Assembly (NCBI RefSeq): GCF_021028975.2
Contig: NC_059428.1
Coordinates: 153,822,001 to 153,886,000, forward strand
Direction of reading: 5' to 3'
Length of the DNA: 64,000 bases
DNA from: Sphaerodactylus townsendi
Lineage: Eukaryota
Part shown: piece after piece, positions 1 to 59,559 of the stretch
How the letters are laid out: every line of letters starts with the position of its first letter
Numbering within the stretch: the stretch's first letter is position 1
The notes under the pieces: generated by a model
Told to the model about the DNA's origin: nothing
Database searches by the model: none
Seen by the model: the letters and a program-made list of their open reading frames with translations, nothing else
Program-made: the position numbers and the translations under genes

Positions 1-667
1 CCTATCTTTTCCAGCTCATTCTCATGAGAATAATGGCGTTTCCCCACTCCCAGTTCCATGGAGATAGCAAATACCGTTTTCCTCCTGCTCTTCCAACTGT
101 GGCAACCCTCTTTCCTGTAACCCGCCGAGCCATCTGTGCCTTCTTGTCACCCGTGAGGGACAAATCCAGAGGGACAGTGCTCTCTGGTATTTTTTTCTTT
201 CAGGGGTGATCCACTAGTCAGCAATTGGTTGTTCTTTGCTCTCAACTGTGTTGCATTCGGGGAACATATTGCCCAACTGAAGCAGTTTGACAATTGTTCC
301 AATTTTACAAACGTTTGAGCCAGGCCCATGTGTCACAAGTGAAGGGTTCCCCATTGCCAGGAAAAGCTTCTCCCTGTTCCTTTTCTGCTTGACAGGTTGC
401 TATTAGAAGCACCAGCACGTGGCCAGCTCTGGACACTAGACCCAGCTGCCTGTATCTCCGCGGCTTCTTTGGATTTCCCTGTATAGTGACTGGGATGATT
501 TGATGTCGTGCATACAGTTCCAGGAATCAACGGTGTCGTGTTGTATCGTGCATCTGACAGGTGTTCTTGGCACAACAGCCACTCAAGGAGTGAGAACAGA
601 GCCCACTTAGCAAGTAACTATGGCAACAGAAGACAGTTTGTGGAATACAGGACCGTTCTGAGGCCAT
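1..667 (-). pseudogene. Long degenerate exon, low-complexity S/T/G-rich tail
   Basis: Acceptor ttttgctgtctttttgtgtgtgtgcag at 669-668; one frame has only 3 stops (TAG 620-618, TGA 335-333, TGA 149-147) in about 221 codons. Confidence 0.45.
614..627. promoter_or_regulatory. RFX X-box motif GTAACTATGGCAAC
   Basis: Close match to the GTNRCYATRGYAAC palindrome; about 1 kb upstream of the + strand pseudogene ATG. Confidence 0.4.
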
Positions 668-738
668 CTGCACACACACAAAAAGACAGCAAAATGTTCA
701 GAAATCAGTTCCTGTAGAAGCCGGGTCCGCTCCCATAC

Positions 739-961
739 TTAACACGCAGGGCCTTCTTCTCAAGCCCCAACCCAGATGCAAAAACTGTAGGCCCATCATT
801 CCTTAGCGAGGCATATGGCAGGTTGATGAAGCAGGAGAACTGGTGGATGCCTCACCAGTGAGATCTAAGCGCTGGATCAGTTCTGTCTGGTGCCGGTCTC
901 CTACCTGTCGGCTGACATTGATGCATAATCTCTTGGTGGCTTCCAGAATGAGATACCCATT
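739..961 (-). pseudogene. Degenerate exon-like segment (GYLILEATKRLCINVSRQ...FINLPYASL...KKALRV)
   Basis: Long pyrimidine tract ending ctctccaa (AG apparently mutated), one frameshift, donor AA|GTATGG followed by a 71-nt intron. Confidence 0.4.
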
Positions 962-1042
962 GGAGAGGGCAGGAGCAGATAAGCATGGGAAAGAGGGGAG
1001 GGGGGAAATGAATGGAGACTTAAACGAGAGGTGAGAGGCTGT

Positions 1043-1350
1043 GAAGAAGAAGAGGAGGAGGAGGAGGAGCAGTTTGGATTTATACCCCACTTTTCTCTCC
1101 TGCAAGGAGACTCAAGGCAGCTTACAAACTCCTTTCCCTTCCTCTCCCCACAACAGACACCTTGTGAGGTAGGTGGAGCTGAGAGAGTTCTGAGAGAACT
1201 GTGCCTAGCCCAAGGTCACCCAGCAGGGATGCAGGAGTGCAGAAACACATCTAGTTCACCAGGTAAGCCTCTGCCACTCAGGTGGAGGAGTGGGGAATCA
1301 ACCCCGGTTCTCCAGATTAGAATCCACCTGTTCTTAACCACTGCACCATG
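1043..1350 (-). mobile_element. tRNA-derived SINE with (CTT)n tail (Squam3-like)
   Basis: Matches the many other copies in the window; tRNA-like head with A/B-box-like sequences. Confidence 0.85.
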
Positions 1351-2914
1351 CTGGCTGTGGAATGTTTTCTGTTGACAAGATGCAAAAAGTGCGTTCCTTG
1401 TGCTTGATAAACTTCATTCTTTGAGTGAGTTGGGAACCCTCGTGTTTCCAAACCAAACGTTTTTGATCTTGCGCTAGGAATTTAAAGTGTGTCACTGCCT
1501 CTTTTGATAAAGCCATTGGCTTAGTCATAGCTACTTCTGGACACTAGTTAGGGGGCCTGGCAGAATTTGACTCTCTTTTCCGCTGTCTCCTTTCGTTACC
1601 TTCCCTTCCTTGGCAATTCCTTCAGCCTGAGAATTGGGCATGCCTTACGACGGATGCTGGCTGCTGCTGCTCCTTCACCTGGTTTGTCAACTAGCAAAAT
1701 GGGCGTGGGGGCAGCCCTTGCTTACATTGTCAACATTTTGAGTCCCTACAGAGGAATTGTTCGAATAGACGGAGCAGCCTGTGCCGATGACCTCCAGGCG
1801 AGAACAAGATGCCTTTGTCCCACCCAGGGCGATGCTGGTGGAATGTGCCGACCCATGTTTTGACTGTAAATCTCAGTCCTTCCCCTCTAGCACACAGAGA
1901 TCACAGCACATTGTTGGCCCAGCAGAAAATGTATCTGGTCAGCTCCCAGAGAAACCCAAAACATGGCTCAGAAGAAGCAGGTGAAGGTTCTGGAGTTTCT
2001 CTTCCTGCATTGTGGGTTTGGAACGGAATAAAGGAAATAGCAAAGCCCTGCAGAACCCTATGCAGCTGTCTCAAGGACTGACTTTACTGACATGAACCTT
2101 CCAGCGTGGTGTAATGGCTAAGAGCAGGTGCACTCTAATCTGGAGAACCGGGTTTGATTCCTCACTCTGCCACTTGAGCTGTGGAGGCTTATCGGGAACC
2201 AGATTAGCTTGTGCACTCCCAGCACATGCAATTTGGAAGTCAGTTTTTATCTGCTGGCTGATCTGTATTCCTGGGTTTTTTAAACAACAACAACAAAGTT
2301 TTAGGCTCTGTCATTTTAGAGGATGTTTTTAATGGTGCCATGAGTTGCCCCGGGCATGTGCCTGAACAGCTAGTATGGTATAAAAGTGTATCAGAAACAC
2401 CTGTCCCAGTCAGGCGATACAGAGAAGCTGCCCCAAAGGAGAGCATGCAGTGGCAAAATGCTTGAGATAATACTGTTACGGTTATCAGTTAGTGAGGCCA
2501 ACTTTTTCTCTAGGATTTTTGGTTTTTAGTTAGCTATAGAGGCATTTCTTCCACTGAACGATAGAAGCTGAGCATGGTTGGAAGAAGGCAGCAATATCTG
2601 TTGAATGTTGAATACCTGAGGGAAATGTAAGGAGAAATTTAAGAACTACACCAAGATATATTACAAAACAGATTAGCTATAGACTATTTACTGGCTGCAA
2701 ACGGAGGACTTTGTCAAATTTTGAAAGGAAGGCCCAGTAAAATTACTTATCATAGTTTAAATAAAGCAATTGAGGGACAATTACAAGATTTATTGATTCT
2801 GGAGACTCATAAGAAAAGAAGAAGGCTTTCACGGCTGGAACACAAACCAATACCTGTTGACTACTTTATGTTATGGATGTAATGTCATGTGTACCTTGAA
2901 TGCAGAAGGTCTGA

Positions 2915-3151
2915 GGTCCCTTCCGCACATGCAGAATAATGCACTTTCAATCCACTTTCACTCCACCAGACCATGGCCACACAGCCCGGAAAACCCACCA
3001 GAACCAGTTGAATCCGCCCATGAAAGCCTTCAACAATACACTTTCACAATTGCTTGCAAGTGGATTTTGTTATTCCGCAGAGTAAAATCCAGCTGCAAAG
3101 GGCATTGAAAGTAGTTTGAAAATGTATAATTCTGCATGTGCAGAAGGGGCC
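2915..3151. mobile_element. Harbinger/Tourist-like palindromic MITE containing a Penelope fragment (~2964-3040)
   Basis: TIR GG(T/C)CCCTTC(C/T)GCACATGCAGAAT; TGA TSD. Confidence 0.7.
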
Positions 3152-3586
3152 TGAGAGCTACAGGTGAGCTAAACCCTGAACTAAAATATACCCAGAATCA
3201 TAAAAACAACAATTAAAGTGTTGTGTGTTGCGTTAACTGATTTTTGTGTTGTCAGATGAAGAAGCTTACTAAGATATCATGAATGCTCTACGGTCTGTGG
3301 AAATACTGGTCCGCAAACACCCTTGGTTTTATTGCTTTCATGGTGAGTACAAGGTGCCTTTGCTTAGCAAGCACTCAAGAACAGGGTAGTATATACAACT
3401 AGTAAAACCCCATAGTAAAAAACAAACAGCTTGAGCAACATTGAGAAAATCCTCAAAAGGATGAAGGCAAAAGTTCATTTATTCAGTGGACGTTTCGTCA
3501 AGGGCCGTCTGACGCATCAGGGGGTAGCGACTGAAAGAGGCCAAAAAGCAGACTTTATGGTTGGCTGCTCTCTTTCCCCTCCTTCA

Positions 3587-3850
3587 GCCTGGTGTAGTGG
3601 TTAAGAGCAGGGGCACTCTAATCTGGGGGACCGGGTTTGACTCCCCGCTCTGCCACTTGAGCTGTGGAGACTTATCTGGTGAATCAGATTAGCTTGTGCC
3701 ACACGTGCCAGTCACAGTTCTTCAGAACTCTCTCAGCCCTACCCACCTCACAGGGTGTTTGTTGTGAGGGGGGAAGGGAAAGGAGATTGTCAGCCCCTTT
3801 GAGTCTTACAGGAGAGAAAAGGGGGATATAAATCCAAGCTCTTCTTCTTC
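3587..3850 (+). mobile_element. Squam3-like SINE
   Basis: GGTGTAGTGGTTAAGAGC head to ATAAATCCAAGCTCTTCTTCTTC tail. Confidence 0.85.
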
Positions 3851-4609
3851 CTGTGTCCAAATAGTGGATCTGGGAGGGGCATTGCAGGATTAGGAAAGCA
3901 AAATTAGACCTCCCTTCACTGTGTTGTCACCCCTATCTAAATCCCTGCCATGGCTATTTGCCAATGAAAACCACTGGAAAGATCTGTTGACAAATCTCCC
4001 AGTTCTTGTCTAGTTTGGTCCCTAGATATTGCTATCCCGCCCCTCTTTCCCTGACATCTACAGCTTTAAGAAGCTTCCTGTGGTATGACACGTTTCAGCA
4101 CGGGGAGTGGAAGACAGTAGAGTTTATGAAATCCTGCTCTCTCGAGGCATTAAAGGGAGGAGGGGAAGAGATTTCCCTGTTGAGCAATTGCTCATGATGA
4201 ACAGTCATGTGATTTCAGTAAATGATATCTTTGAGCACGAGAATGAGGAAGCAGCCGAGGAAACAAGCCGCTACAGTGTGTTTGCTGAGAGGGGTGGGAT
4301 GGGAGGTTTAAACTCAGATGATTTGGCACAAGATCGCCTCCTCGATACGCTGTATTAAAGAAGACAGGATCGCTATCACAGCCAAAGACCTTTGACCCTC
4401 GATACCTGTTTGTGTTACTGGAGAGCCGATTCTTCTGCGACCCGCAGGAAGTTGAATTATAACCCTGGTTGTGCACAACATTTAATATAACCTCAGATTT
4501 GTCTAAACTATTAGCACATTAGTGCAAATTAGAAGCTTAACTTCTTTTTGTTATAGGTGCACGTTCCTGGCATCCGCCTCTAGTTCTCTCCCCCTCCCCC
4601 CAGTTTAAC

Positions 4610-4782
4610 ACTGGTTCAAATATGTGAACGGGGAACATTGTTTCCCAGGTGTATCTTAATGTGTTTTGAGTGCAACTGTTGCTATGAACCAGGTGTGATG
4701 TCTTCCTTTCTCGGGAGAATAGGTGAAAAAAAAATCCATTTTCAGGGATGTGATCCATCCGTCTTGTGCTGAATTCCAAATG
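4610..4782 (-). pseudogene. CIROZ-like remnant exon (IWNSAQDGWITSLKMDFFFTYSPEKGRHHTWFIATVALKTH*)
   Basis: Acceptor tacttctgcag; D/E/W spacing resembles recalled YRVDLSLEFAEMAAPVLWTV; 3' end uncertain. Confidence 0.45.
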
Positions 4783-5250
4783 CTGCAGAAGTACTTGTGG
4801 GTTTTAAAGTACATTTTTATCCTGCCTTCCCTCCAAGGAGTTCAGAATGGTGTGCGTCATTTTACCCCTCCTCCATGTTATTTTCACAGAACCTGGTAGG
4901 TTAGGCTGACTGGCCCAAGGTCACCCACTATGTTTCATGGAAGTTGGGAGGTTTAAATCTGGGTTATCCAGGTCCAAATCCAGCACTCTAACCTGTCTGC
5001 CACACTGTCAAATAAATAGCACATCATCAACCAATCAATCAAGCCTTTATTGGCATAGTAAGCAATACAGTAAGTACAGTAAGAGAAAACTGATTAAAAA
5101 CATGGACATTAAATAGCACATTATTAACAACGTGACTTTTAATTAAATTGAAACACCTTTGTACAAAATCAATGGTTTATGTATAGATCTTTTCACGAGG
5201 GGGATATTGATGGGAGTGTGATCTAACTTACAATTAATAGAAGTTACAGT

Positions 5251-5360
5251 GTATTGTCAAAGGCTTTCACGGCTGGATTCAACTGGTTGTGGTGGGTTTT
5301 CTGGGCTGTGTGGCCGTGGTCTGGTGGTCCTCCACACAGCCCGGAAAACCCACCACAAAC
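5251..5360. mobile_element. Penelope-derived short inverted fragment with 15-bp TSD
   Basis: AATAGAAGTTACAGT at 5236-5250 and 5361-5375. Confidence 0.75.
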
Positions 5361-5399
5361 AATAGAAGTTACAGTTTGTGTGAAGTAAAGATAATCTCA

Positions 5400-6450
5400 A
5401 ATATTGTTGCCAACTTTTTCTCTGCGCACTAGCATTGAAATGTCTTAAACTACAAAAAGTAGCACATTTGTATAATGAAAGAGGAGATTTTATAACGTTT
5501 CCACATCTTATGGAGAAAGGAGGTACAGAGAACTGGTTAGTACTAAGAGGAATTTGGGAAAAGATAAAAGCCTCTAGGATAGAAGGAGATTGTATAATGA
5601 AAAATTGTGTAAAAATATATGATGAAAGGAAAGGAAAAATGTTAGGAGTTTTATATAAATACATGATAGAAGATCAAGAATTTATGGTAAGAGCTGTAAT
5701 GGAAAAATGGCAACAAGATGGAGTAAAAGACACAGATTCTATACAACAAATAATAGATAAGATAAATAAGATAAAAATAGAGAAATATCTTCGCGAGATT
5801 GGAGAAGAAATTAATATTAAAAAATGGTATAGAATCCTTACGAAACAGTTGGCATATATATGATAAAGGAGGGGCTCAGCTCGAAATGTTGGTGCACTTC
5901 GTGGGGGATAAAAATGCAATTTACACCCATATGTGGTTAGAATGTCCAGAGGTAAAACACCTGTGGGAAAATGTTATAATGTATATGGAAAAATATGTGA
6001 ATGTAAAAATAAAGATAAATATAGATCTATTATTTTTAGGCATACTGGATTATACAATAATAGAACAAAGAAAGAGAAAGCTATTTAAACTTATGATCAG
6101 AGCGGCCCATGCAGTAATAGCATTAGGGTGGAAGGACAAAAGAATCTGGACAATACAGAAATGGTTGGAATATATATGGGAACAAATACAATTGGAAATT
6201 TCTGACATAATGTCAAGAAACCAAATATGGCAAAAAAATCCCAAAAAGATATGAAGTGGATTTGGACTGAATTCAAAGACTGGTTAAATGAAATTGGAAT
6301 CACAGAAGAAAACTGGAAAAGAAGATTAGAAAAAATGGACCTGTTCCTGCACATTTAAAGAAGAAAAGAAGGGGGGAAAGGGGGAAATGGATATGGATAT
6401 GGAGGATGAAATATAAAGATGTATAATATAAAACTAACAATCCAAAATAT
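5400..6450 (+). mobile_element. L1/Tx1-clade LINE 3' fragment (ORF2 C-terminus)
   Basis: A-rich sense strand; zinc-knuckle remnant KCW..C...YTHMWLECP; frameshifted ORFs 5435-6254. Confidence 0.75.
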
Positions 6451-6701
6451 CAATTAATTTTTTTTTTAAATGAAAAGTCTTAAACGATAAGCAAGGGCCA
6501 TTCTCCATTGCACTGATTAAAATGTGCCTGCATCAATTTAAATGTATCCTTCCCGATTAATCAATTAAGACACTGATCTCCGGATTAGGTCAGGTAGCCC
6601 TAATCTTGATAGTTTTGATAACCCTCTGTGGGGCCAATGAATCCCAAACATCAAAGAAAGCTCTGCGCTCCTTTTAAAAACGCGGAATGAAAGGCAAACA
6701 C

Positions 6702-6931
6702 CTTCATTTCAGCCACAGGATGCATGGTCTTGGAGTTCCTGAAAGTCACTGTATCTGATCTCCTTTGCTTTGGAGGATTGGTGCACGTTTAAGACAGTTT
6801 TGGCGCTGGAAATATTTAGGCAGATGAGACTGAAGAACCTATGACAGGGAATCATAATAACAAAGCTTATGTTGGCAAGGTCCACAGCTGTGATTTCTGC
6901 CACATGAAATAGCATACACGCTGAAGGCAAA
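6702..6931 (-). pseudogene. CIROZ-like remnant exon (LPSAC...VIMIPCHRF...LNVHQSSKAKEIRYSDF)
   Basis: Strong acceptor atttttctctttctgcag; open for about 73 codons; VHQS at 6786-6775; donor AAG|GTGTTT. Confidence 0.6.
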
Positions 6932-8152
6932 CTGCAGAAAGAGAAAAATCTAATGTTACCGTGCAACTGTGCCAAAAAGGCAAGCTTCCAAAAAATCCGC
7001 TTCCTCTAATTTTTTTTTCAAGTCAAACATGCCAAATGCCCTTTGCTTAGCCTCTGTGACTCTGAACAAGCCTGAACATTAAAATACAGTCCCTTCCTCT
7101 CCTGGTAAACCTTCTGATTTAAAGAAAAATTGAGTCCATTTCCCAACTTCAAGGAATGTATTTCATTAATTGAATCTCCCAGTTGTGAGGAATCATGTGT
7201 TTGTTTCATCGGCGGCGGAGGCAGCAGGGCGGGGTTATTTAAAAAGTCCCCGGAGGACAGCGAGTGTCCTGAAAGCCAAAGTTGTGCAGGAAATCCTTAT
7301 TTTCATTCACATCCTTTAGGTTTCCTGTGCAGTCAGGTGGCACAAAATAACCCTTAAATGCCCCCTGATCACGCTTGCTAGGAAAGCAGCCTTCGTGGAG
7401 TCAAAGATCATGTGTAAAAACTCTCAAAATATTCACGGTTGGCTGGTCAAAAGGAAGAGGTTTAGATTTTGCTCTCTCTGTGTGTGTGTTTCAAGGGCTC
7501 TGTCATTCTGACTCGGAAACCCCACTGCAATAATCCCCGCCGGCCTGTTTGTTTACCGAGGGACTGTCCTACCAGCTGATCTCGTCATTCATTAAAAAAT
7601 AAAATCCAAAATGCCCTCGCTTCCCTCTGCCTGTGTTTCATCCAGCTCTTTTGCCAGACGGAGGGCACAGATATTCCCCTCCCTAGCTGCAGATCAAGCT
7701 GTGTCAAGGTCTGAATGAGCGTAAATCCATCTCAGCAGCAGCAGCAGGCCGGCGGCTTTTAATATGTAGAGGATGGGCTATTAAGATACTGTAATCTCTG
7801 AGGCTCATTCTGCTATATTTTGAACAAGGGGGAAGGGGGGGTGTCGCTCACTGGAAGATGTGAGCCAGCTCTTCTCTCTCTGTGCTAATACAGTCTAAAA
7901 TTAAAAGCCCAGAAGCTGGCAGGAATTGTGAATTGATGATCCCGCTGTGACTATGGCTCTCCCTGGCGACTGGCAGCGGGTGATGGAGGCCGGGTGGCCA
8001 GACCCAGATTTGGAAACAGGTGGGACCTTAGGGATGAGGGGGCCCCCAGTGGGTGGAATACCATAGAGCCCACCTTCCAAAGCCTCCATTTTCTATAAAG
8101 ACAACGCTTTGTCACTAATTTAAAACAAAATTGAACATGTCCCTATTGTGGC

Positions 8153-8443
8153 ACGGTGCAGTGGTTAAAAGCAGGTGGATTCTAATCTGGAGAACTGGGT
8201 TTGATTCCCCACTTCTCCACTTGAGTGGCGGAGGCTTATCTGGTGAACCAGATGTGTTTCCGCATTCCCTACAATCCTGCTGGGAGACCTGGGGCTAGTC
8301 ACAGTTCTTCGGAGCTCTCTCAGCCCCACCTACCTTACAAGGTGTCTGTTGTGGGGAGAGGATGGGAAATGATTGGTTGTAAGCCACCTTGAGTCTCCTT
8401 ACAGGAGAGAAAGTTGGGATATAAATCCAAACTCTTCTTCTTC
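8153..8443 (+). mobile_element. Squam3-like SINE
   Basis: Same family consensus. Confidence 0.85.
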
Positions 8444-8761
8444 TTTACCAAGGACAATCTCTGTTTTTCTAATGCCTGTCCTTGGCAAATGGCTGTTCCT
8501 ATTTTGTCCACCCCCTTTTCTCCCCTCCTATTGATGGTTCATCTCTCTCTGCAGGACCTCAGGAAGTCAAATCTCTTGCTGGAGGCAAGAGCTACAGACG
8601 TGGTCCTCACGAAGCATCCTGCCCAGGCACTGAACAAACTTGGATCTACTTAGCTTAGGCGAGGTTGCTGCATCATGGACTTCCAGGGCATACCAAAGCT
8701 TAGTTTTCCATCTCGGGCTAAAACAAGGTTTGTTTCCAGTTCTGTAAGTGTGTATAAAGTG

Positions 8762-8965
8762 CCGTCGAGTTTCAGCAGCCCTTGCAGCAACTCAATAGGG
8801 CTTTCAAGGCAAAAGGCCAAACAGAGGAGTTTGCCCGTCACCTCCCTCTTCATAGCAAATCTGGTATTCCTTGGTGGTCTCCCCTCCAAATACTAGCCAT
8901 GGCTGACCCTGCTTGGCTTCTGGGATCTGATGAGATCAGGCTAGTCTGGGCCATCTAGGTCAGGC
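8762..8965 (-). mobile_element. 5S rRNA-headed SINE with RTE-like tail
   Basis: Reverse complement reads GATCTCATCAGATCCCAGAAGCCAAGCAGGGTC...GTATTTGGAGGGGAGACC (degenerate 5S) then non-5S tail; a similar decayed copy lies at ~37480-37650. Confidence 0.75.
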
Positions 8966-9083
8966 CTCCAGTTCTACAAGGAACCCATAAACATCTTCAG
9001 TATATTAATTAAGACTGAGGCTTTTAGAGGATCTTCCAAGCAGTTTACATTAATCGCTTTTATAGTTTGTATTATCTGTCATT

Positions 9084-9390
9084 AACATAAGAACATAAGA
9101 ACAAGCCAGCTGGATCAGACCAGAGTCCATCTAGTCCAGCACTCTGCTACTTGCAGTGGCCCACCAGGTGCCTTTGGGAGCTCACATGCAGGATGTGAAA
9201 GCAATGGCCTTCTGCGGCTGGTGCTCCCAAGCACCTGGTCTGCTAAGGCATTTGCAATCTCAGATCAAAGAGGATCAAGATTGATAGCCATAAATCGACT
9301 TCTCCATAAATCTGTCCAAGCCCCTTTTAAAGCTATCCAGGTTAGTGGCCATCACCACCTCCTGTGGCAGCATATTCCAAACACCAATCA
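9084..9390 (-). mobile_element. CR1-type LINE 3' end
   Basis: (AACATAAG)n 8-bp terminal repeat and CR1-like 3' sequence. Confidence 0.65.
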
Positions 9391-10579
9391 CACGTATCTA
9401 AAATGATAAGAGTGAATCATTCTAATCTGGTTACCACTGGCGTACCTGCCTAGGGACAGGGGGTACCCTATGTCCCCGGGCGCCCCCCATTTGACATGGA
9501 GGCAGGCAATGGCGACCCACGTATAAACATCTCCTGCGCTGAAAACCTTACTGGGTTGCCGTATGTCAGCTGCCACTTGATGGCAAAGAAAACTATTTGT
9601 TTTACGCCCTGTCATCCTGCTGTTACTACACTGTTGTCTAGTTTTGTAATTCCTTGTTCTGCGTTGTTGAACATCTCACATCTGACAACTTTCCCCTGGT
9701 CTGTGCTTTGAGTCTCACTGAGAAAGGTGGATTACAGTCAATAAAATAAAAACTTATCTCCAGCAGTCGTGTGTGTAAGTATGTCTGCATGAACATTAAG
9801 GCGCCATATAAGTCCTTAACCTGCTGCATCACCCGTCAGTGAAAGTCATTTTGAAGTGTTGATAATAATCAGGTTGTAGGGAAAGTGTGTGTGTGTGTAT
9901 CTCACACATTTAGCATATCTTTAATCTTAAAAATGAACACCTCCTTGTCTTGTAAAAACAATGCTGGGGATGCTAGTAGCTGTCGAAAGGAATGCAGCGT
10001 CAAACAGAGATTTCAGCCCGTTGCAGTGAGTGGGGAAAGGGGAAAGGGAAGGAATCTCTGGTATGATTCAGGGCGTGACGGGCATGCTCCTATTGCAGTC
10101 CGTGAAATGTTGGAACCTAAAATCAAATGGTTTACAGTAGGAAAAAAGGCAAGAAGGATTGACACATTGCAGGAAAAACAAGCAGGGGTCTTGGTGGCAC
10201 CTTCAAGACCAATATATTCTAGCATACCGTTTTATGGAGACCACTTCATCTGATGGAGGAGGAAAAGAAATATAAAGTCCTGTCAATTTTATTTTTCAAG
10301 TTGAACCAGAGATAGGCCCAGTTGTAGAGTATTTTAAACCTGGACCTGTTAGCCCAGTGAGAATCTGCAGTGCAAGAGAGGCAGCTGTGAACCAGAACAT
10401 AGTTAATTCCTGGCATTTCAGCTTAGAGAAGTTAAAATGGCCCTTTCACAAAATTGCAAAAAAAAAAAAAGATCACAAGGGAGAAAAGATGGACCTCTGC
10501 TGGCCAGGTGGATCTCTGCACTTTGCCTCAGGTGAGGCCTCTCCTGAGAGAGTCTTCACATCTGGTTTTGTAACTAGTT

Positions 10580-10674
10580 GTGAGGGGGCAGACTGCCAGG
10601 ATGGTCAAATGGACTGGACCGATTCAGACTGCAGTGGAAGGGGAGACAGTTTTTTCTGTGATGTTCATAATTTC
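10580..10674 (-). pseudogene. CIROZ-like remnant exon (EIMNITEKTVSPSTAV*IGPVHLTILAVCP)
   Basis: Acceptor tgtttacttcccacttacag; TGA at 10626-10624; G-x4-[TS][IL]xAxCP motif; 3' end uncertain. Confidence 0.6.
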
Positions 10675-11244
10675 CTGTAAGTGGGAAGTAAACACGGCAT
10701 GTGAAGGCCGGGGCTAGAACCTGTCCCTGAGATGGTTGATTTTTGTTATATAGATCATGTTTACATGGGGGAAGTGTGATTCCACCCAGTGGGTTGAGAC
10801 ATTCTTGGAGATTTGGGGATATTGTGAGGGCAGGGTTTTTGGGGACAGGAAAGACCTCAGTGGGTTATAATGTCATCCGACACAGCCATTTTCCTGAGGG
10901 GAGTGATCACTGTTGTCTGGAGGCGAGTCATAATTCCAGGCAATTTTCGGGGCCCGGTGTGAAACTGGCATCCTTAGGACATCGTGCAACATAAATAGCT
11001 GACTTAAGGCAGCTGCTTTCTAGGCCTAGCTGCTTTCTAGGCTTTCTAGGCCTTACCGTTTCTGACTGCACATGAGGATTAATTTTGAACGCCTCTGCGG
11101 AGTCACACACTCCCTACATGTGGTGAACTAGCACCTCAGTAAAGCCCATTTAGTGTAGTTCTCTCCCTGGAATTGTGGTTTTCTACAAGCAGGGAGTTCT
11201 TCCTGTGGTGTGTGTGTGGTGGTGGTGGTGGGGAGTTAGGTTAC

Positions 11245-11455
11245 TCTGGCATGACCTCCGTAGCTGCAATCTGAAATCCAAGGACGGTGATTATGCTCTT
11301 AATGTTTGTGGTTGAAACATTCTCCTGGTGCCTGGGAGAATCCCTGGTTCTGGATGGGATTGTCGCCCTCCTCCCGCAAGGCTCAAAACCAGCACAGATT
11401 TCCGCTGATAACTTAGCAGGGCCACAGTGTGCAAGCGGCTTCATTGTTGCTGCAG
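11245..11455 (-). pseudogene. CIROZ-like remnant exon (MKPLAHCGPAKLSAEI / WF*ALREE / TTNIKSIITVLG)
   Basis: Acceptor ttcgttttgcttag(ctgcag); HCGP motif; internal frameshift and TGA at 11385-11383. Confidence 0.6.
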
Positions 11456-13104
11456 CTAAGCAAAACGAATCACAATGTGGACTCTGGGGTGATTATGAAA
11501 CACATTGAGCAACCGCTGTCTCCTCCAAAGCAGCCTTCTTGTATCTCTCTCTCCACACTCCCATCAGCTGACCGGTAGGAAGTTTGGTAGGGTATTGCGC
11601 TACTGTTGCCCTCTGGCAAATGGCTTGCAAGCGGTTTGGCTTGTCCCCAAACGGAAGTCCAGTTGCAGTGGTTCCCAACCTTTTTGGTATGTAACCTGCA
11701 AGCCCATATTTATTTGCCATGATGACCCACTGTGAAACAACAACAGAGCATGCACAAATCCATCAGACTTCACACTCTTTGCAAGCTGCAGGCTGGGAAA
11801 CTTTGCTGTTGCGCAAGAGTAGCACAGTATTCAACCAGCTCCCAACTCTCTGGAGAATGAACGATTCGAAAGCGAAAACCATCTCAAGTCTTTTGTTACA
11901 TGGGACAGGACAGACGTCCTTAACATCTTTTAAAAGAGAATTTCAACCTGTGAATCAGGGATGGTTTAATTCTTGCAGTTTTACCTGCAACAACCACTCT
12001 TCTCTATGCTGCTTTTAATGATAGAATTTGTATTTATTTACTTCATTTACTCCAATGGGGACTGAAAGGGCCTTTCATCCTTCTCATCTCCTCCATTTTG
12101 AGGGAAGGGGACATTCGAGTGGTAAGATATTTAACCAAGCTCATGGATGTGCAGATGTATGCAAAAGCCAGTGTGGAGTAGTGCCTAAGAGTGCTGAACT
12201 AGTATCTAGGGGTCTGAACCCCCTCATGCCATGGAAGCTCAGTGGGTGACTTTGAGCCTAACCTACCTCACAAGGTTGGTGTGATGATAAAATGGAGATG
12301 AGGATGATTATGTAAGCTACTTCGGGCCCCCATTGGGGAAAAAGGTGGGGTACAAATTAAATAAACAAACGGAGGAAGTGAGCTCTGACATGCAAAAGCT
12401 AATGCTAAACCAAATCATCTCTAAGGTGCTGCCTGACTCCAGTCATAACTGTCACATGGGAGGTTTTCTCACAAACACCCCCCACAGTGTCGATCAGCAT
12501 TTTTAAAACACTGAAGGATTATCTCATGAAATCTCCCAACACCTTTGTTCAACCTTAGCAAACACTTGCAAAACCATGAAATGAGGGATTTCTTAGTAAA
12601 ACAATGTCATTGCAGCCAATAAAATGGTTCAGTTTACAGTAGAAATAGGTACACAGATTAAGAAAAAAAAAGTGATGTACTAATTAACCAGGTATAGCCA
12701 GCCTAGGCAAGGGTTTGACTGTGGCAGAAAACATGAGGGACGCGCAGAAATAGGTACGGGTGAAGGTTATGTGTGTGCCCTATTTCACAACAAAATTAAT
12801 ACGCAAATTGTTTGTAGACAGAGCACACATTTATTTGTTCTTTTTACTCAATTGCCACTGTCCCCAGCAGGTCACAAGTGTGAAATGCAAATGGATTCCT
12901 TTCTTGTATTTAAATAAAGAAACTGATTTGAGTAAGTCAGAGATGTGGGTGGAGAGATGAGGTTGAAAAGCAGAATTTTAAAAGCAAAGTCGGAAATGAA
13001 AGCCCCAGAAATAAAATGGAGGTCATAGAAAATAATTAAGGTTCTTTTGAATATGTAAGAGTAAACAAGCCACTGAGAGCTGTTGTATAAATGGGTGTCT
13101 TTAC

Positions 13105-13383
13105 TTGCCCTTCTTGCAGGGAAAAATGCTTGTCTCTTTACCAGATGTTATTTACCAGATGTTATCATGGTCCCATGCTATGAAAAGCATCCCATTTCCA
13201 CACATTAAGCCTAGTTTAAAGTGACATTTTTCTCCAGATCTCTTGGCTGCCTTCACCACAAATTTAGGATTGGTGTTGGGTAAAAGGCAGGGGCAAAAGC
13301 TGATGATTCTTAACCAGATGAAAAGTCAGTTGACAACTGCATGGTATGGGATCTTTTGCAAATAATAACATTACGGCATTTAA
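13105..13383 (-). pseudogene. CIROZ-like remnant exon (VKCRNVIICKRSHTMQL ... EKCHFKLGLMCGNGMLFIAWDHDNIW*RDKHFSLQ)
   Basis: Acceptor ctccttgatttcaccag; TAA at 13154-13152; a 14-bp tandem duplication (13138-13165) shifts the frame; donor CAA|GTAAAG at 13105/13104 (3' end uncertain). Confidence 0.65.
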
Positions 13384-13697
13384 CTGGTGAAATCAAGGAG
13401 TTGCACACTCAACTATCACTGAACCATATTTATTATTGCCATGATTTACATCATCCCATTATGTGGAGCACTGGGGTAGGTCTGAACTGAACCTACTGCC
13501 CATTGACTATATTATTGGTGGCCCCATATTTTTCTTTGCTAGTATTTCCTGATGATTTGGGGGGGAAACGATGATACTTTGGAGGGCAAAAATCATAATT
13601 GGTGGGGTCCCATCTCCATCTGCTACCTAGGCCCATCCTAGGCCTTAGAGTACCAAAGTAGGCGGGGTTACAGTGGCCCCGCCCCGTCATCGCTCAC

Positions 13698-13809
13698 CTG
13701 AGGAGCGCAGGAAACCGAGACGCTCCCAGCCGACCGAACCACAGTAGCGTGCGCGGAGGGGGGAGTTAAAAAAAAAGACTAGCGACGTTTCGCGTCCAAG
13801 CCAAAACAT
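13698..13809 (-). pseudogene. CIROZ-like remnant, candidate exon 1 (MFWLGRETSLVFFFNSPLRA...FLRSS)
   Basis: ATG 13809-13807, open for 37 codons + 1 nt to a strong donor CAG|GTGAGC at 13698/13697; phase 1 matches the next exon. Confidence 0.5.
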
Positions 13810-13993
13810 CCGAAAAAGCCATATTCTGAACGAAACGACATCCCCCCCGCCGTGTGTACATACATACGTATAAGCTTCGTTTTAATATAAAAGAAGGGTA
13901 AATCCCTCCCCCTTTTTCACCAACTTGGCACGTCCCGGGTCGAGGGGGGAAAAAATGGGGGACCGAGAGAGGAGAAGGAGGAGCCCGCCGCGG

Positions 13994-14003
13994 GTCACGT
14001 GAC
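13994..14003. promoter_or_regulatory. CLEAR element GTCACGTGAC (TFEB/TFE3/MITF)
   Basis: Perfect palindrome within GGGTCACGTGACCC; V-ATPase genes are established CLEAR-network genes. Confidence 0.85.
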
Positions 14004-14025: not shown

Positions 14026-14321
14026 TCCTGCGGCGGCTGGGTATTTAGAGCGAGCCGCGGGGGCAGAGGCGGAGGGACGCAGCGGGAGGCCGGCGCGGCT
14101 GCTTTGCAGGGAACAAAAACACAGACCCCAAGATATTGCAACCCAGAAAAAGAAAAGCAACCGCGTCGTTTTTTCTCCGGCCTCTTCCCGGGACGCGTCA
14201 TTGCATTGCGGGCGGAGGCGAGGAGGCGCTGCCCGTCCTGTTCCCGGAGCCTCCCTCGGTCGCGTCGTAGCCGCCCTCCCCTCCTTTCTTTCTTTCCCCT
14301 CCCTCCTTTTTCGCCTCAGCC

Positions 14322-55251: not shown

Positions 55252-56187
55252 GTGAGATGGCAAACCTAGTCTTTGGGCATTGTTCAAATATGATTCTTTC
55301 TTGGAGTGTTTTATTCATTTACTCATTCATTCCGACCTCACCCTTCTCCCTGATGGGGACTCAACATGACTTCCATTGTTCTCTCCCCCTTCACTGTATC
55401 CTCACAAAAATTCTGCAAAGTAGATTAGGCAAGATAGATTCCCTACTGAGTGCCCTGGCAGAAAGGGGATTTGTGCCTGGATTTCCCAAGTCCTGTTCCA
55501 ATGCTCTGACCACTACACCACATTTGCTGCCATTTCCCACATGCATCCAAGTGAGATGAGTGTTTACACATACAGGCTGCTGCCTCTTTCTCACAAGACA
55601 CCCCTAACTTACAGCATAGAGAGCAAGTAGTGCTTTGCCGTACCTCTGTAATCCTTCTTCAGTGTTGCCTTGCAGCTTGATCCAAGCTTGCTGAATTTGT
55701 TGTTGGTTAACCAACATGAGCCAGTGATAGCTCTAGCTCAATGAGGTAGCATCCTATCCCTTGACCAGAACAGATTGGCTGTTCCCAAGCACCCTGAACG
55801 CTCAGCTCATGAATGCACACACAGCCCCTGGACGGACTCCCCGTCCCACACAGAACCCCCTCCGCCCTCCTGTCTTCGGAAAAACCCCAACAACAAACCT
55901 TTTTTCTCTGTCTGGGCAGTGCCAGCCGGCAATACACTGGGGGCAGATTCCCACCCACGGTGTGTTGCCAACCAGCGCCACTCAGATGGAGGAAAATATA
56001 TGTTGGGGGATTTTTTGCAGGGGGTGGGGTGGGGCGGAGTTCAGCTGGGGACTGGGCCTTTTGAGGGTTATCTGCTACTGCATACATCTTCATTGCTTGT
56101 CTGACTTTGTGTGTTTGGTCGAAAGTGACAGCAAAGTAACAAACATTAATGATTTAATGAAAACATCAACCCTTACATTCTCTGCAG

Positions 56188-56750
56188 TTGTGAAATCCGA
56201 GAAGATGGAAATTCAGCCTGGTGATGCATTCCCTCTGGGCAGTGTGGTGGTCCACAGGAAACGATCCGACCAGCCCTCTAAGTCTTCATCATGGTTCACT
56301 CCATCCGACAGTAGCTCTCAGTTTCACTTAGATCGTCCTGAGAGAACCCCAGAAGAAGTGAGAACAAGAACCCGCGATGTGAAGCAAGCCCGGGGTAGAG
56401 CCGGCTCTCCAAGAGCAACCGGAGCCGCAGGTGAGCGTTCCCCCGACTTACTTTAAAGGAAGGCCAACGGGAGATGTTTCACTTGTCCACTGGAACGCAA
56501 GGGCCCAAATTTGCTTTCAATTTCACCATCCCTGAGCGTCTCCCCCCTCCTTCCGCTGCTGCAGTTTGGAGGTTTGGACCCCCAGGTGGGAAGGTTGCAG
56601 CAGAAGCAGTCACAGAAAATGACACTCCATCAAGGGAAGCCACAGAGATACCAGAGAGTTTGGTCTCCCCCAAGCCTGATCCATTGGATGCAACGAGCGG
56701 TAGATGTCAAAGAGATGATGGAAGTCCGTCACTGAAGGATGCTCAAGAAG
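56188..56750 (+). pseudogene. Duplicated copy A of the large C8orf33 linker exon, frameshifted as assembled
   Basis: 563 nt versus 540 nt for copy B; the 23 extra nt cluster in 56360-56460; in-frame TAA 56454-56456. Confidence 0.6.
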
Positions 56751-56793
56751 GTAAGAAATGATGACTGCCAGTTGGATTTGGGTTTATATGTAG

Positions 56794-58149: not shown

Positions 58150-58848
58150 GGAACCTGCTGCTAGACTGCATTTTGTTTCTAGGAAGACGGAAAATGGGCT
58201 GGAGACAGGACAGGATCACTGTCGGGAGGACCTAGATTTGGAGCTTGAAAAAGGGCAGATTTAGGATAACAGGACAGTTCTTAGACAACAGGTTTGGTGT
58301 TGTGGACAAGAGCAGGTTCACTGTATTCTGGGGAACCAGGTTTGCTCAAGAAGCAGGCACTTGAGCTGTGGAGAAACTTATCTGAGAGAACCAAGATTAG
58401 TTTGTGCACTCCAACACATGTCAGCTGGAGTTAGTCACAGTACTTCGGAGCTCTCTCAGCCCCACTCACCTCACAGGGTGTTTGTTGTGGGTGGTGGGGA
58501 AGGGAAAGGACATTGTAAGCCCCTTTGAGTCTCTTTACAGGAGAGAAAGAGGGGATATAAATCCAAACTCTTCTTCATTTTATCCTCATAACAATTCTTC
58601 AAAGTAGATTAGGCAAGATAGATTACCAATTGCACGGTTCAGACGGAGGAAAAGGTATGTTGGGGGATGTTTTGCAGGGGTGGGGTGGGGTGGGGCGGAG
58701 TTCAGCTGGGGACTGGGCCTTTTGAGGGTCATCTGCTACTGCATACATCTTCATTGCTTGTCTGACTCTGTGCGTTGGGTCGAAAGTGGCAGCAAAGCAA
58801 CAAACATTAATAATTTAATTGAAACATCAACCCTTACATTCCCTGCAG

Positions 58849-59388
58849 TTGTGAAGTCCGAGAAGGTGGAAATCCAGCCTGGAGATGCTTTCCCTCTGGG
58901 CAGTGTGGTAGTCTGCAGGAAACAATCTGGCCAGCCCTCTAAGTCTTCATCATGGTTCACTCCATCCGACAGTAGCTCTCAGTTTCACTTAGATCGTCCT
59001 GAGAGAACCCCAGAAGAAGTGAACAGAACCGCATGTGAAGCAAACGGGGTAGACGGCTCTCAAGAGCAGACCGCAGGTGACGTTCCCCCGACACTGGAAG
59101 GCCAACGGGAGATGTTTCACTTTTCCACTGGAACGCAAGGGCCCAAATTTGCTTTCAATTTCACCATCCCTGAGCGTCTCCCCCCTCCTTCCGCTGCTGC
59201 AGTTTGGAGGTTTGGACCCCCAGGTGGGAAGGTTGCAGCAGAAGCAGTCACAGAAAATGACACTCCATCAAGGGAAGCCACAGAGATACCAGAGAGTTTG
59301 GTCTCCCCCAAGCCTGATCCATTGGATGCAGCAAACGGTAGATGTCAAAGAGATGATGGAAGTCCTCCTTTGGAGGTTACTCAAGAAG
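58849..59388 (+). CDS. C8orf33: C8orf33 homolog, large linker exon (intact copy B)
   Basis: 540 nt open, phase 1-1, VKSEKVEIQPGD...PKFAFNFTIPE...VTQE; donor G|GTAAGA. Confidence 0.82.
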
Positions 59389-59559
59389 GTAAGAAATGAT
59401 GACTGCCAGTTGGATTTGGGTTCATTTGTAGATCCCTGCCTGTTTAGACTTTCTTTTGTTTCCAGGAAGATGGAAATTTGCTGGAATATTCTGGGATCAC
59501 TGTCGTTGGGATATCTAGCATGGAAGTATAATAATAAAAACAGCTTAGTGCTTAGCCAA

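Follow-up and report, generated by a model that had tools for sequence, protein, structure and literature searches.

The window analysed here is a stretch of 64,000 nucleotides (G000:C4:153822001-153886000) within the 1.8-Gb genome of the gecko Sphaerodactylus townsendi. From their translations we take the flanking genes to be NTN3, TBC1D24, ATP6V0C and AMDHD2. The end of TBC1D24 lies about 17.3 kb before the window and ATP6V0C starts at position 14318, which places the candidate gene described below inside a 31.6-kb TBC1D24-ATP6V0C gap, in single-copy DNA. A gene for a noggin-2-like protein of S. townsendi, which clusters with other squamate proteins, is found 272 kb upstream. A chicken gene list gives the order AMDHD2; ATP6V0C; TBC1D24; NTN3; NOG2 with no named gene between, the list presenting unnamed genes separately (PMC13735278). 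The literature listed on synteny, on CIROZ paralogs and on gecko unitary pseudogenes yielded, at listing level, no gene in the TBC1D24-ATP6V0C interval.

Three exon-like stretches on the + strand

Within this gap, three + strand stretches with GT-AG ends join in phase 2-2 into one frame of 723 nt (240 codons), and the coordinates given for them in an earlier note on this DNA were borne out. AG precedes 1626, 3256 and 4064, GT follows 1980 and 3342, and the joined frame begins with the ATG at 1640 and ends at TAA 4356-4358. The splice sites were ranked among the 779 GT and 1002 AG sites in positions 1-14000 with a simple weight matrix of general splice-site frequencies, and both donors came out as strong (ranks 4 and 15 of 779).

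Exon-like stretch 1 (1626-1980, + strand; donor rank 15 of 779) carries 14 nt before the ATG, including an in-frame TGA at 1628, and encodes a signal-peptide-like start, a Ser/Pro/Glu-rich stalk with three Cys and an Arg-rich end. It is preceded by a pyrimidine-rich tract with an AG acceptor (1570-1625, + strand), which is weak (rank 164 of 1002); an acceptor before 1626 would imply an unmapped first exon upstream. Exon-like stretch 2 (3256-3342, + strand; 87 nt) has an acceptor ranked 22 of 1002 and the donor ranked 4 of 779, and holds the third premature stop, two Cys and a hydrophobic end of 9-10 residues (3320-3342). Exon-like stretch 3 (4064-4358, + strand; acceptor rank 94 of 1002) continues with Lys-Lys, the fourth premature stop and 89 open codons before the TAA. 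An ATTAAA at 4354 overlaps this terminal stop, and the first AATAAA after it, a possible polyadenylation signal, lies at 5011-5016 (+ strand). Just after that AATAAA come AT-rich open frames (5387-6413, + strand) which, by their look, we take to be the 3' part of a LINE.

The exons are single-copy by depth and by own-genome DNA and protein searches, and the high-copy repeats are confined to the introns. Intron-like stretch 1 (1981-3255, + strand) contains such repeats together with a short env-like fragment (2655-2870, + strand), low in copy number by depth, that resembles the transmembrane region of a retroviral envelope (PF00429, E=0.026, below the cut-off). In intron-like stretch 2 (3343-4063, + strand) the depth places the high-copy repeats at approximately 3520-3950.

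Premature stop codons

Four premature stops interrupt the frame as had been reported, namely TGA at 1739-1741, TAG at 1766-1768, TGA at 3257-3259 and TGA at 4086-4088 (all + strand). Contigs from two runs of the same organism, X1 and X3, were used to assess their fidelity. Neither contained another letter or a gap over 1560-2130 and approximately 3130-3614, so that exons 1 and 2 were free of other letters, and over 3823-4800 they showed 3 and 2 substitutions, respectively, none of them in a stop codon and, among the rows listed, only one synonymous change falling in exon 3. As the X1 and X3 contigs match all four stops, the stops are real and not errors of the assembly, with the reservation that X1 or X3 may be the assembly's own sample. 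At 3918 and 4172 all four of the compared runs differ from the window, which reflects either allele differences or assembly errors.

The comparison with relatives covered four of the five runs carrying the stretch, and included two organisms, B and C, about 2% diverged from the window. None of the five runs is recorded as RNA, which speaks neither for nor against expression. The list for the relatives gives 40 of 148 differences, and a position that is missing from it is no proof of identity. Among the differences listed, stops 2-4 showed no change in organisms B and C. Stop 1 is TGG (Trp) in both organisms, and the origin that had been proposed for three of the stops, CGA>TGA, thus fails for it. 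The broader argument that C>T changes explain all four stops was rejected, since every stop codon is one C>T away from a sense codon.

Predicted features of the putative protein

The predicted signal peptide spans 24 codons (1640-1711, + strand), its Leu run being encoded by a short CTG repeat. By a hydropathy rule the start is signal-peptide-like, as the earlier note had it, with a 10-residue mean of 2.54 and small residues at -3 and -1. The same hydropathy and -3/-1 rule was satisfied by 63 of 15,097 ATGs in 444 kb, and the candidate is without a basic n-region. The furin-like site stands in part, in that R-x-x-R is present as read, while the full R-x-K/R-R requires stop 3 to be read as Arg. 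In exon 3 the Tyr-containing acidic tail was found, with its Tyr motifs, and the Lys-Lys at 4068-4073 provides the basic residues expected just after a helix. The order of the features along the frame is, from the sequence, that of a type I membrane protein.

The membrane helix itself is absent from the DNA as read. The best 19-residue hydropathy after residue 40 was 1.51, in a segment spanning a stop, and the best stop-free value was 0.92, which 12% of random stretches reach. The helix had been obtained by removing three single bases from homopolymers in exon 2, and this raises the hydropathy to 2.14, a value that 2.7% of 57,001 random stretches attain when edited with equal freedom. This score is suggestive. 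It would require that three +1 insertions had occurred in a span of about 15 nt and that the rest of the 723 nt had received none. An excerpt of a survey of 100 vertebrates and 122 insects describes compensating frameshift pairs as rare, with 6 of 624 candidates passing strict filters (PMC8935012). Among the 40 of 148 differences listed, none is an indel at these three homopolymers in either relative. It is possible that a helix was eroded by substitutions, or that the product was a secreted precursor with several basic sites.

Variation in relatives

The ten exonic substitutions listed comprised six missense changes, one stop/Trp change and three synonymous changes, which agrees with the synonymous fraction expected under neutrality, 0.305 (P=0.63). 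Both exonic indels listed were 3 nt long; one of them, a deletion at 1660, accounts for organisms B and C having one unit fewer in the CTG repeat behind the signal-peptide Leu run. Exon 3 had a single listed difference, synonymous and common to all four compared runs. Organism B carried 8 of its 46 substitutions in exons, which make up 29% of the compared bases, a depletion with P=0.046 if the unlisted differences lie outside exons and one that vanishes (P=0.26-0.50) if they fall within them. At 1741, 3270 and 3280 a stop codon is replaced by a sense codon, in a different frame in each case. In exon 2 it is the two frames other than phase 2-2 that are opened in this way (3270 and 3280), so that none of the frames looks specially protected. 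The variation in the two close relatives looks neutral, as would be expected of a dead gene and of a non-gene alike.

Coding potential and chance expectation

Stop codons were not significantly depleted in any of the three stretches (P = 0.18, 0.68 and 0.11 for exons 1, 2 and 3). Composition was scored after training on recognised exons from this genome, 1,249 codons in all. By the amino-acid score exon 1 was average (p=0.47), and exon 2 in the phase 2-2 frame was the worst of its three frames, with p=0.85 for the amino-acid score and p=0.99 for the codon score; neither exon thus resembles coding sequence when read in that frame. Exon 3 contains one stop in 97 codons, and its composition lies in the top 0.28% of 97-codon windows of the real neighbouring DNA. 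A natural open frame of 103 codons (1552-1863, + strand), which overlaps exon 1 but is read in a different frame, scores slightly better for composition (p=0.08) than phase 2-2; Pfam gave it a weak, chance-level match only.

The DNA was then scanned for chains comprising a signal-peptide-like ATG and three exons, with splice sites as good as those of the candidate, at least 230 codons and at most four stops. Such chains numbered 16 in 444 kb of real DNA, and in two of these, the candidate included, the last exon scored at least 9. Simulation of 410 windows yielded 515 such chains; the last exon scored as high in none of them and reached 7 in one. With looser thresholds none reached 8 in 136 simulated windows (732 chains), and a smaller simulation gave 20 chains in 20 windows. 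Chains of this type are therefore common, at 1.3-2.3 per window. The null test was chosen after the data had been seen, and the Markov simulation was free of decayed repeats; we put the chance rate at perhaps up to a few percent per window. The gene-like skeleton is therefore cheap; the support for a dead gene is moderate and comes mainly from exon 3.

The absence of a net frameshift was also considered. Under plain neutral decay, four stops with no net frameshift have a probability of 0.003-0.04 and are thus unusual, given frameshift rates of 0.13-0.05 per substitution, of which the highest was estimated from the comparison of runs and the others were assumed.

Homology searches

Exon 1 was compared with 1.84 billion representatives in a full HMMER scan, which returned two matches only, both of which were rejected as repetitive sequences with poor alignments. 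In word searches with exon 3, none of the 312 candidates of 171-2000 residues and none of the three of 53-170 residues scored. The frame had no Pfam or PDB match, and none of 357 pattern matches in metagenome contigs was usable. Protein and DNA searches of the gecko's own genome revealed no paralog among the best candidates scored, and their five side matches look like chance. The search for an ortholog that the earlier note had proposed thus gave no relative with an open frame in the protein collections. As the collection searched includes annotated proteins of the same gecko and of other squamates, a close annotated ortholog is unlikely. There may be an ortholog which is unannotated or which lies below approximately 40-50% identity, above all for exon 3.

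The putative minus-strand host

The candidate had been described as nested in an intron (962 to ~4600) of a CIROZ-like fossil on the opposite strand. We could not confirm this host, as there was no family match and as neither a minus-strand acceptor at 962 nor a donor near 4600 was among the sites listed. Profiles of DUF4556 and ZP-N had no match in the window, at a sensitivity that short decayed exons can escape. The surroundings of the candidate resemble CIROZ (C1orf127) in that a long minus-strand frame with few stops and several exon-like pieces are found there, and differ in that neither DUF4556 nor ZP-N is matched. The only DUF4556 match in the genome (E=2, contig C5) had no CIROZ-like neighbourhood among the neighbours listed. 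Excerpts of two studies bear on this point: one counts C1orf127 among five genes lost from reptile genomes and reports it absent in the veiled chameleon (PMC11398420), and the other cites the same five-gene loss (PMC12344233). Given that loss, a readable CIROZ-like fossil would have to be a paralog that was lost later.

Some decayed minus-strand gene is plausible nonetheless. The low-stop frame or frames neighbouring the candidate (1-961, - strand), which formed part of the proposed fossil, had no family match. One minus-strand frame extends from position 617 to a point 330 bases upstream of the window; its 316 codons contain 5 stops, a count matched by 2% of windows. A word search with the minus-strand frame of 7215-7949, which may hold little real exon, scored none of 1266 candidates. 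Further along, 11244-11930 (- strand) comprises 229 codons with 2 stops, is single-copy and without family match, and may belong to the same fossil.

Interpretation

The earlier note had proposed a dead + strand gene, and this stands as the most likely single reading, although neither homology nor constraint at the protein level was found for it. We lean, with no great firmness, towards the three stretches being exons of a dead single-copy coding gene, probably a unitary pseudogene. What makes this the most likely reading is the acidic, protein-like exon 3, which lies at an acceptor and in phase with the signal-peptide-like exon 1, a combination seen in none of 410 simulated windows. That the gene encoded a single-pass membrane protein is a fair possibility, which we put forward tentatively; that its product was a secreted precursor seems quite unlikely. 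The candidate resembles vertebrate unitary pseudogenes in being single-copy, in having introns and premature stops, and in its neutral-looking change, and differs from them in that an intact ortholog at the same position was not found here in protein searches.

If the gene was real, transcription on the + strand would have begun at an upstream exon, with splicing from 1980 to 3256 and from 3342 to 4064. Translation from the ATG at 1640 and cleavage of the signal peptide after Gly24 would have delivered a protein of about 240 residues, precursor included, to the secretory pathway. At the exon 1/2 junction, the Arg-rich site may have allowed a furin-type convertase to cut the outer Ser/Pro/Glu-rich stalk. 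The end of exon 2 would have supplied the putative anchor, with Lys-Lys and an acidic inner tail behind it. The Tyr-x-x-hydrophobic motifs of that tail could, judging from the layout, have served sorting or signalling. At present the first stop, at codon 34, would leave little more than the signal peptide, and the DNA would be drifting neutrally; in organisms B and C the first stop would come at codon 43 if they share stop 2.

PIANP and AJAP1 are two small type I membrane proteins whose stalk is cleaved by a convertase. What the candidate has in common with them is no more than a predicted layout, in which a signal peptide, a low-complexity stalk, an Arg-rich site and an anchor precede a tail with Tyr; it differs in having no sequence or Pfam similarity to them and, as the DNA stands, no 19-residue helix. 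TNFRSF12A (Fn14), which lies near ATP6V0C in human, shares with the candidate the small single-pass layout, the short Cys cluster and an acidic motif reminiscent of a TRAF site. Identity with Fn14 was rejected, since PF12191 had no match in the window and its matches over the cut-off were on contig C15.

That an undescribed gene for a convertase-cut single-pass protein with an acidic, Tyr-bearing tail lay antisense within a second unrecognised gene, that both are intact in other reptiles, where they would be unannotated or have diverged too far to be found, and that both died here at about the same time is a fuller scenario which we consider doubtful. The stop densities of the candidate and of its minus-strand neighbour are similar (1.6-1.7 per 100 codons).

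It is a distinct possibility, if a lesser one, that the chain arose by chance in single-copy non-coding DNA, where a CTG repeat mimics a signal peptide and common splice-like sites are joined, exon 3 being a compositional outlier or the relic of another gene. The 16 comparable chains in real DNA and the 515 in simulated windows show how readily this happens, the stop counts are unremarkable, no homolog was found, and among the relatives stops are gained or lost in each of the three frames (1741, 3270 and 3280). Other coding-like stretches of similar score, as yet unexplained, also occur in the same interval. Chance accounts less well for the last exon, which none of the 515 simulated chains equalled in protein-like character, and for features that fall in the order of a membrane protein, with an edited helix matched by only 2.7% of random stretches.

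We regard it as improbable that the splice sites are live and serve a non-coding RNA or another frame. Using the same junctions, a phase-1 frame of 136 codons from 1791 (1791-1980, 3256-3342 and 4064-4196) has one internal stop, at 3270-3272, where organisms B and C carry CAA. Exon 2 scores better by amino acids in phase 0 (p=0.11) and phase 1 (p=0.04) than in the phase 2-2 frame, and exon 3 is almost without change in the relatives among the differences listed. In exons 1 and 3, however, the phase-1 portions do not look coding (p=0.98 and 0.28), the phase-1 frame has no Pfam match, and it is broken in the window's own organism. Hardly credible, finally, is an intact gene whose stops and extra homopolymer bases are long-read assembly errors: single-base excesses at three homopolymers do form a pattern typical of such errors, but the X1 and X3 contigs reproduce the stops of the window and have already largely refuted this explanation.

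Should the dead gene be real, it would represent a protein family missing from current annotation and found only by way of a readable dead copy, and, if an overlapping gene was lost together with it, would point to a function that the gecko lineage gave up. Should the chain be due to chance, it would illustrate that patterns of a signal peptide plus exons arise easily in vertebrate DNA, at one or two per 64 kb.

Other open frames in the window

Two adjacent open frames of coding-like composition lie on the + strand at 9855-10250 (132 codons) and 10276-10677 (134 codons), the second of which contains a strong donor-like site at 10531. Neither frame had a Pfam match, and the second was without a relative in the Atlas or in its own genome. 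They may be later exons of the candidate or belong to a further decayed gene on the + strand. Two natural open frames nearby gave no usable Atlas match, a result that shows neither absence nor novelty.

Towards the far end of the window, two near-identical long frames (55737-56761 and 58608-59399, + strand) are found approximately 2.7 kb apart. They lie downstream of a C8orf33-like gene and represent a local tandem duplication of the last exons of this gene.
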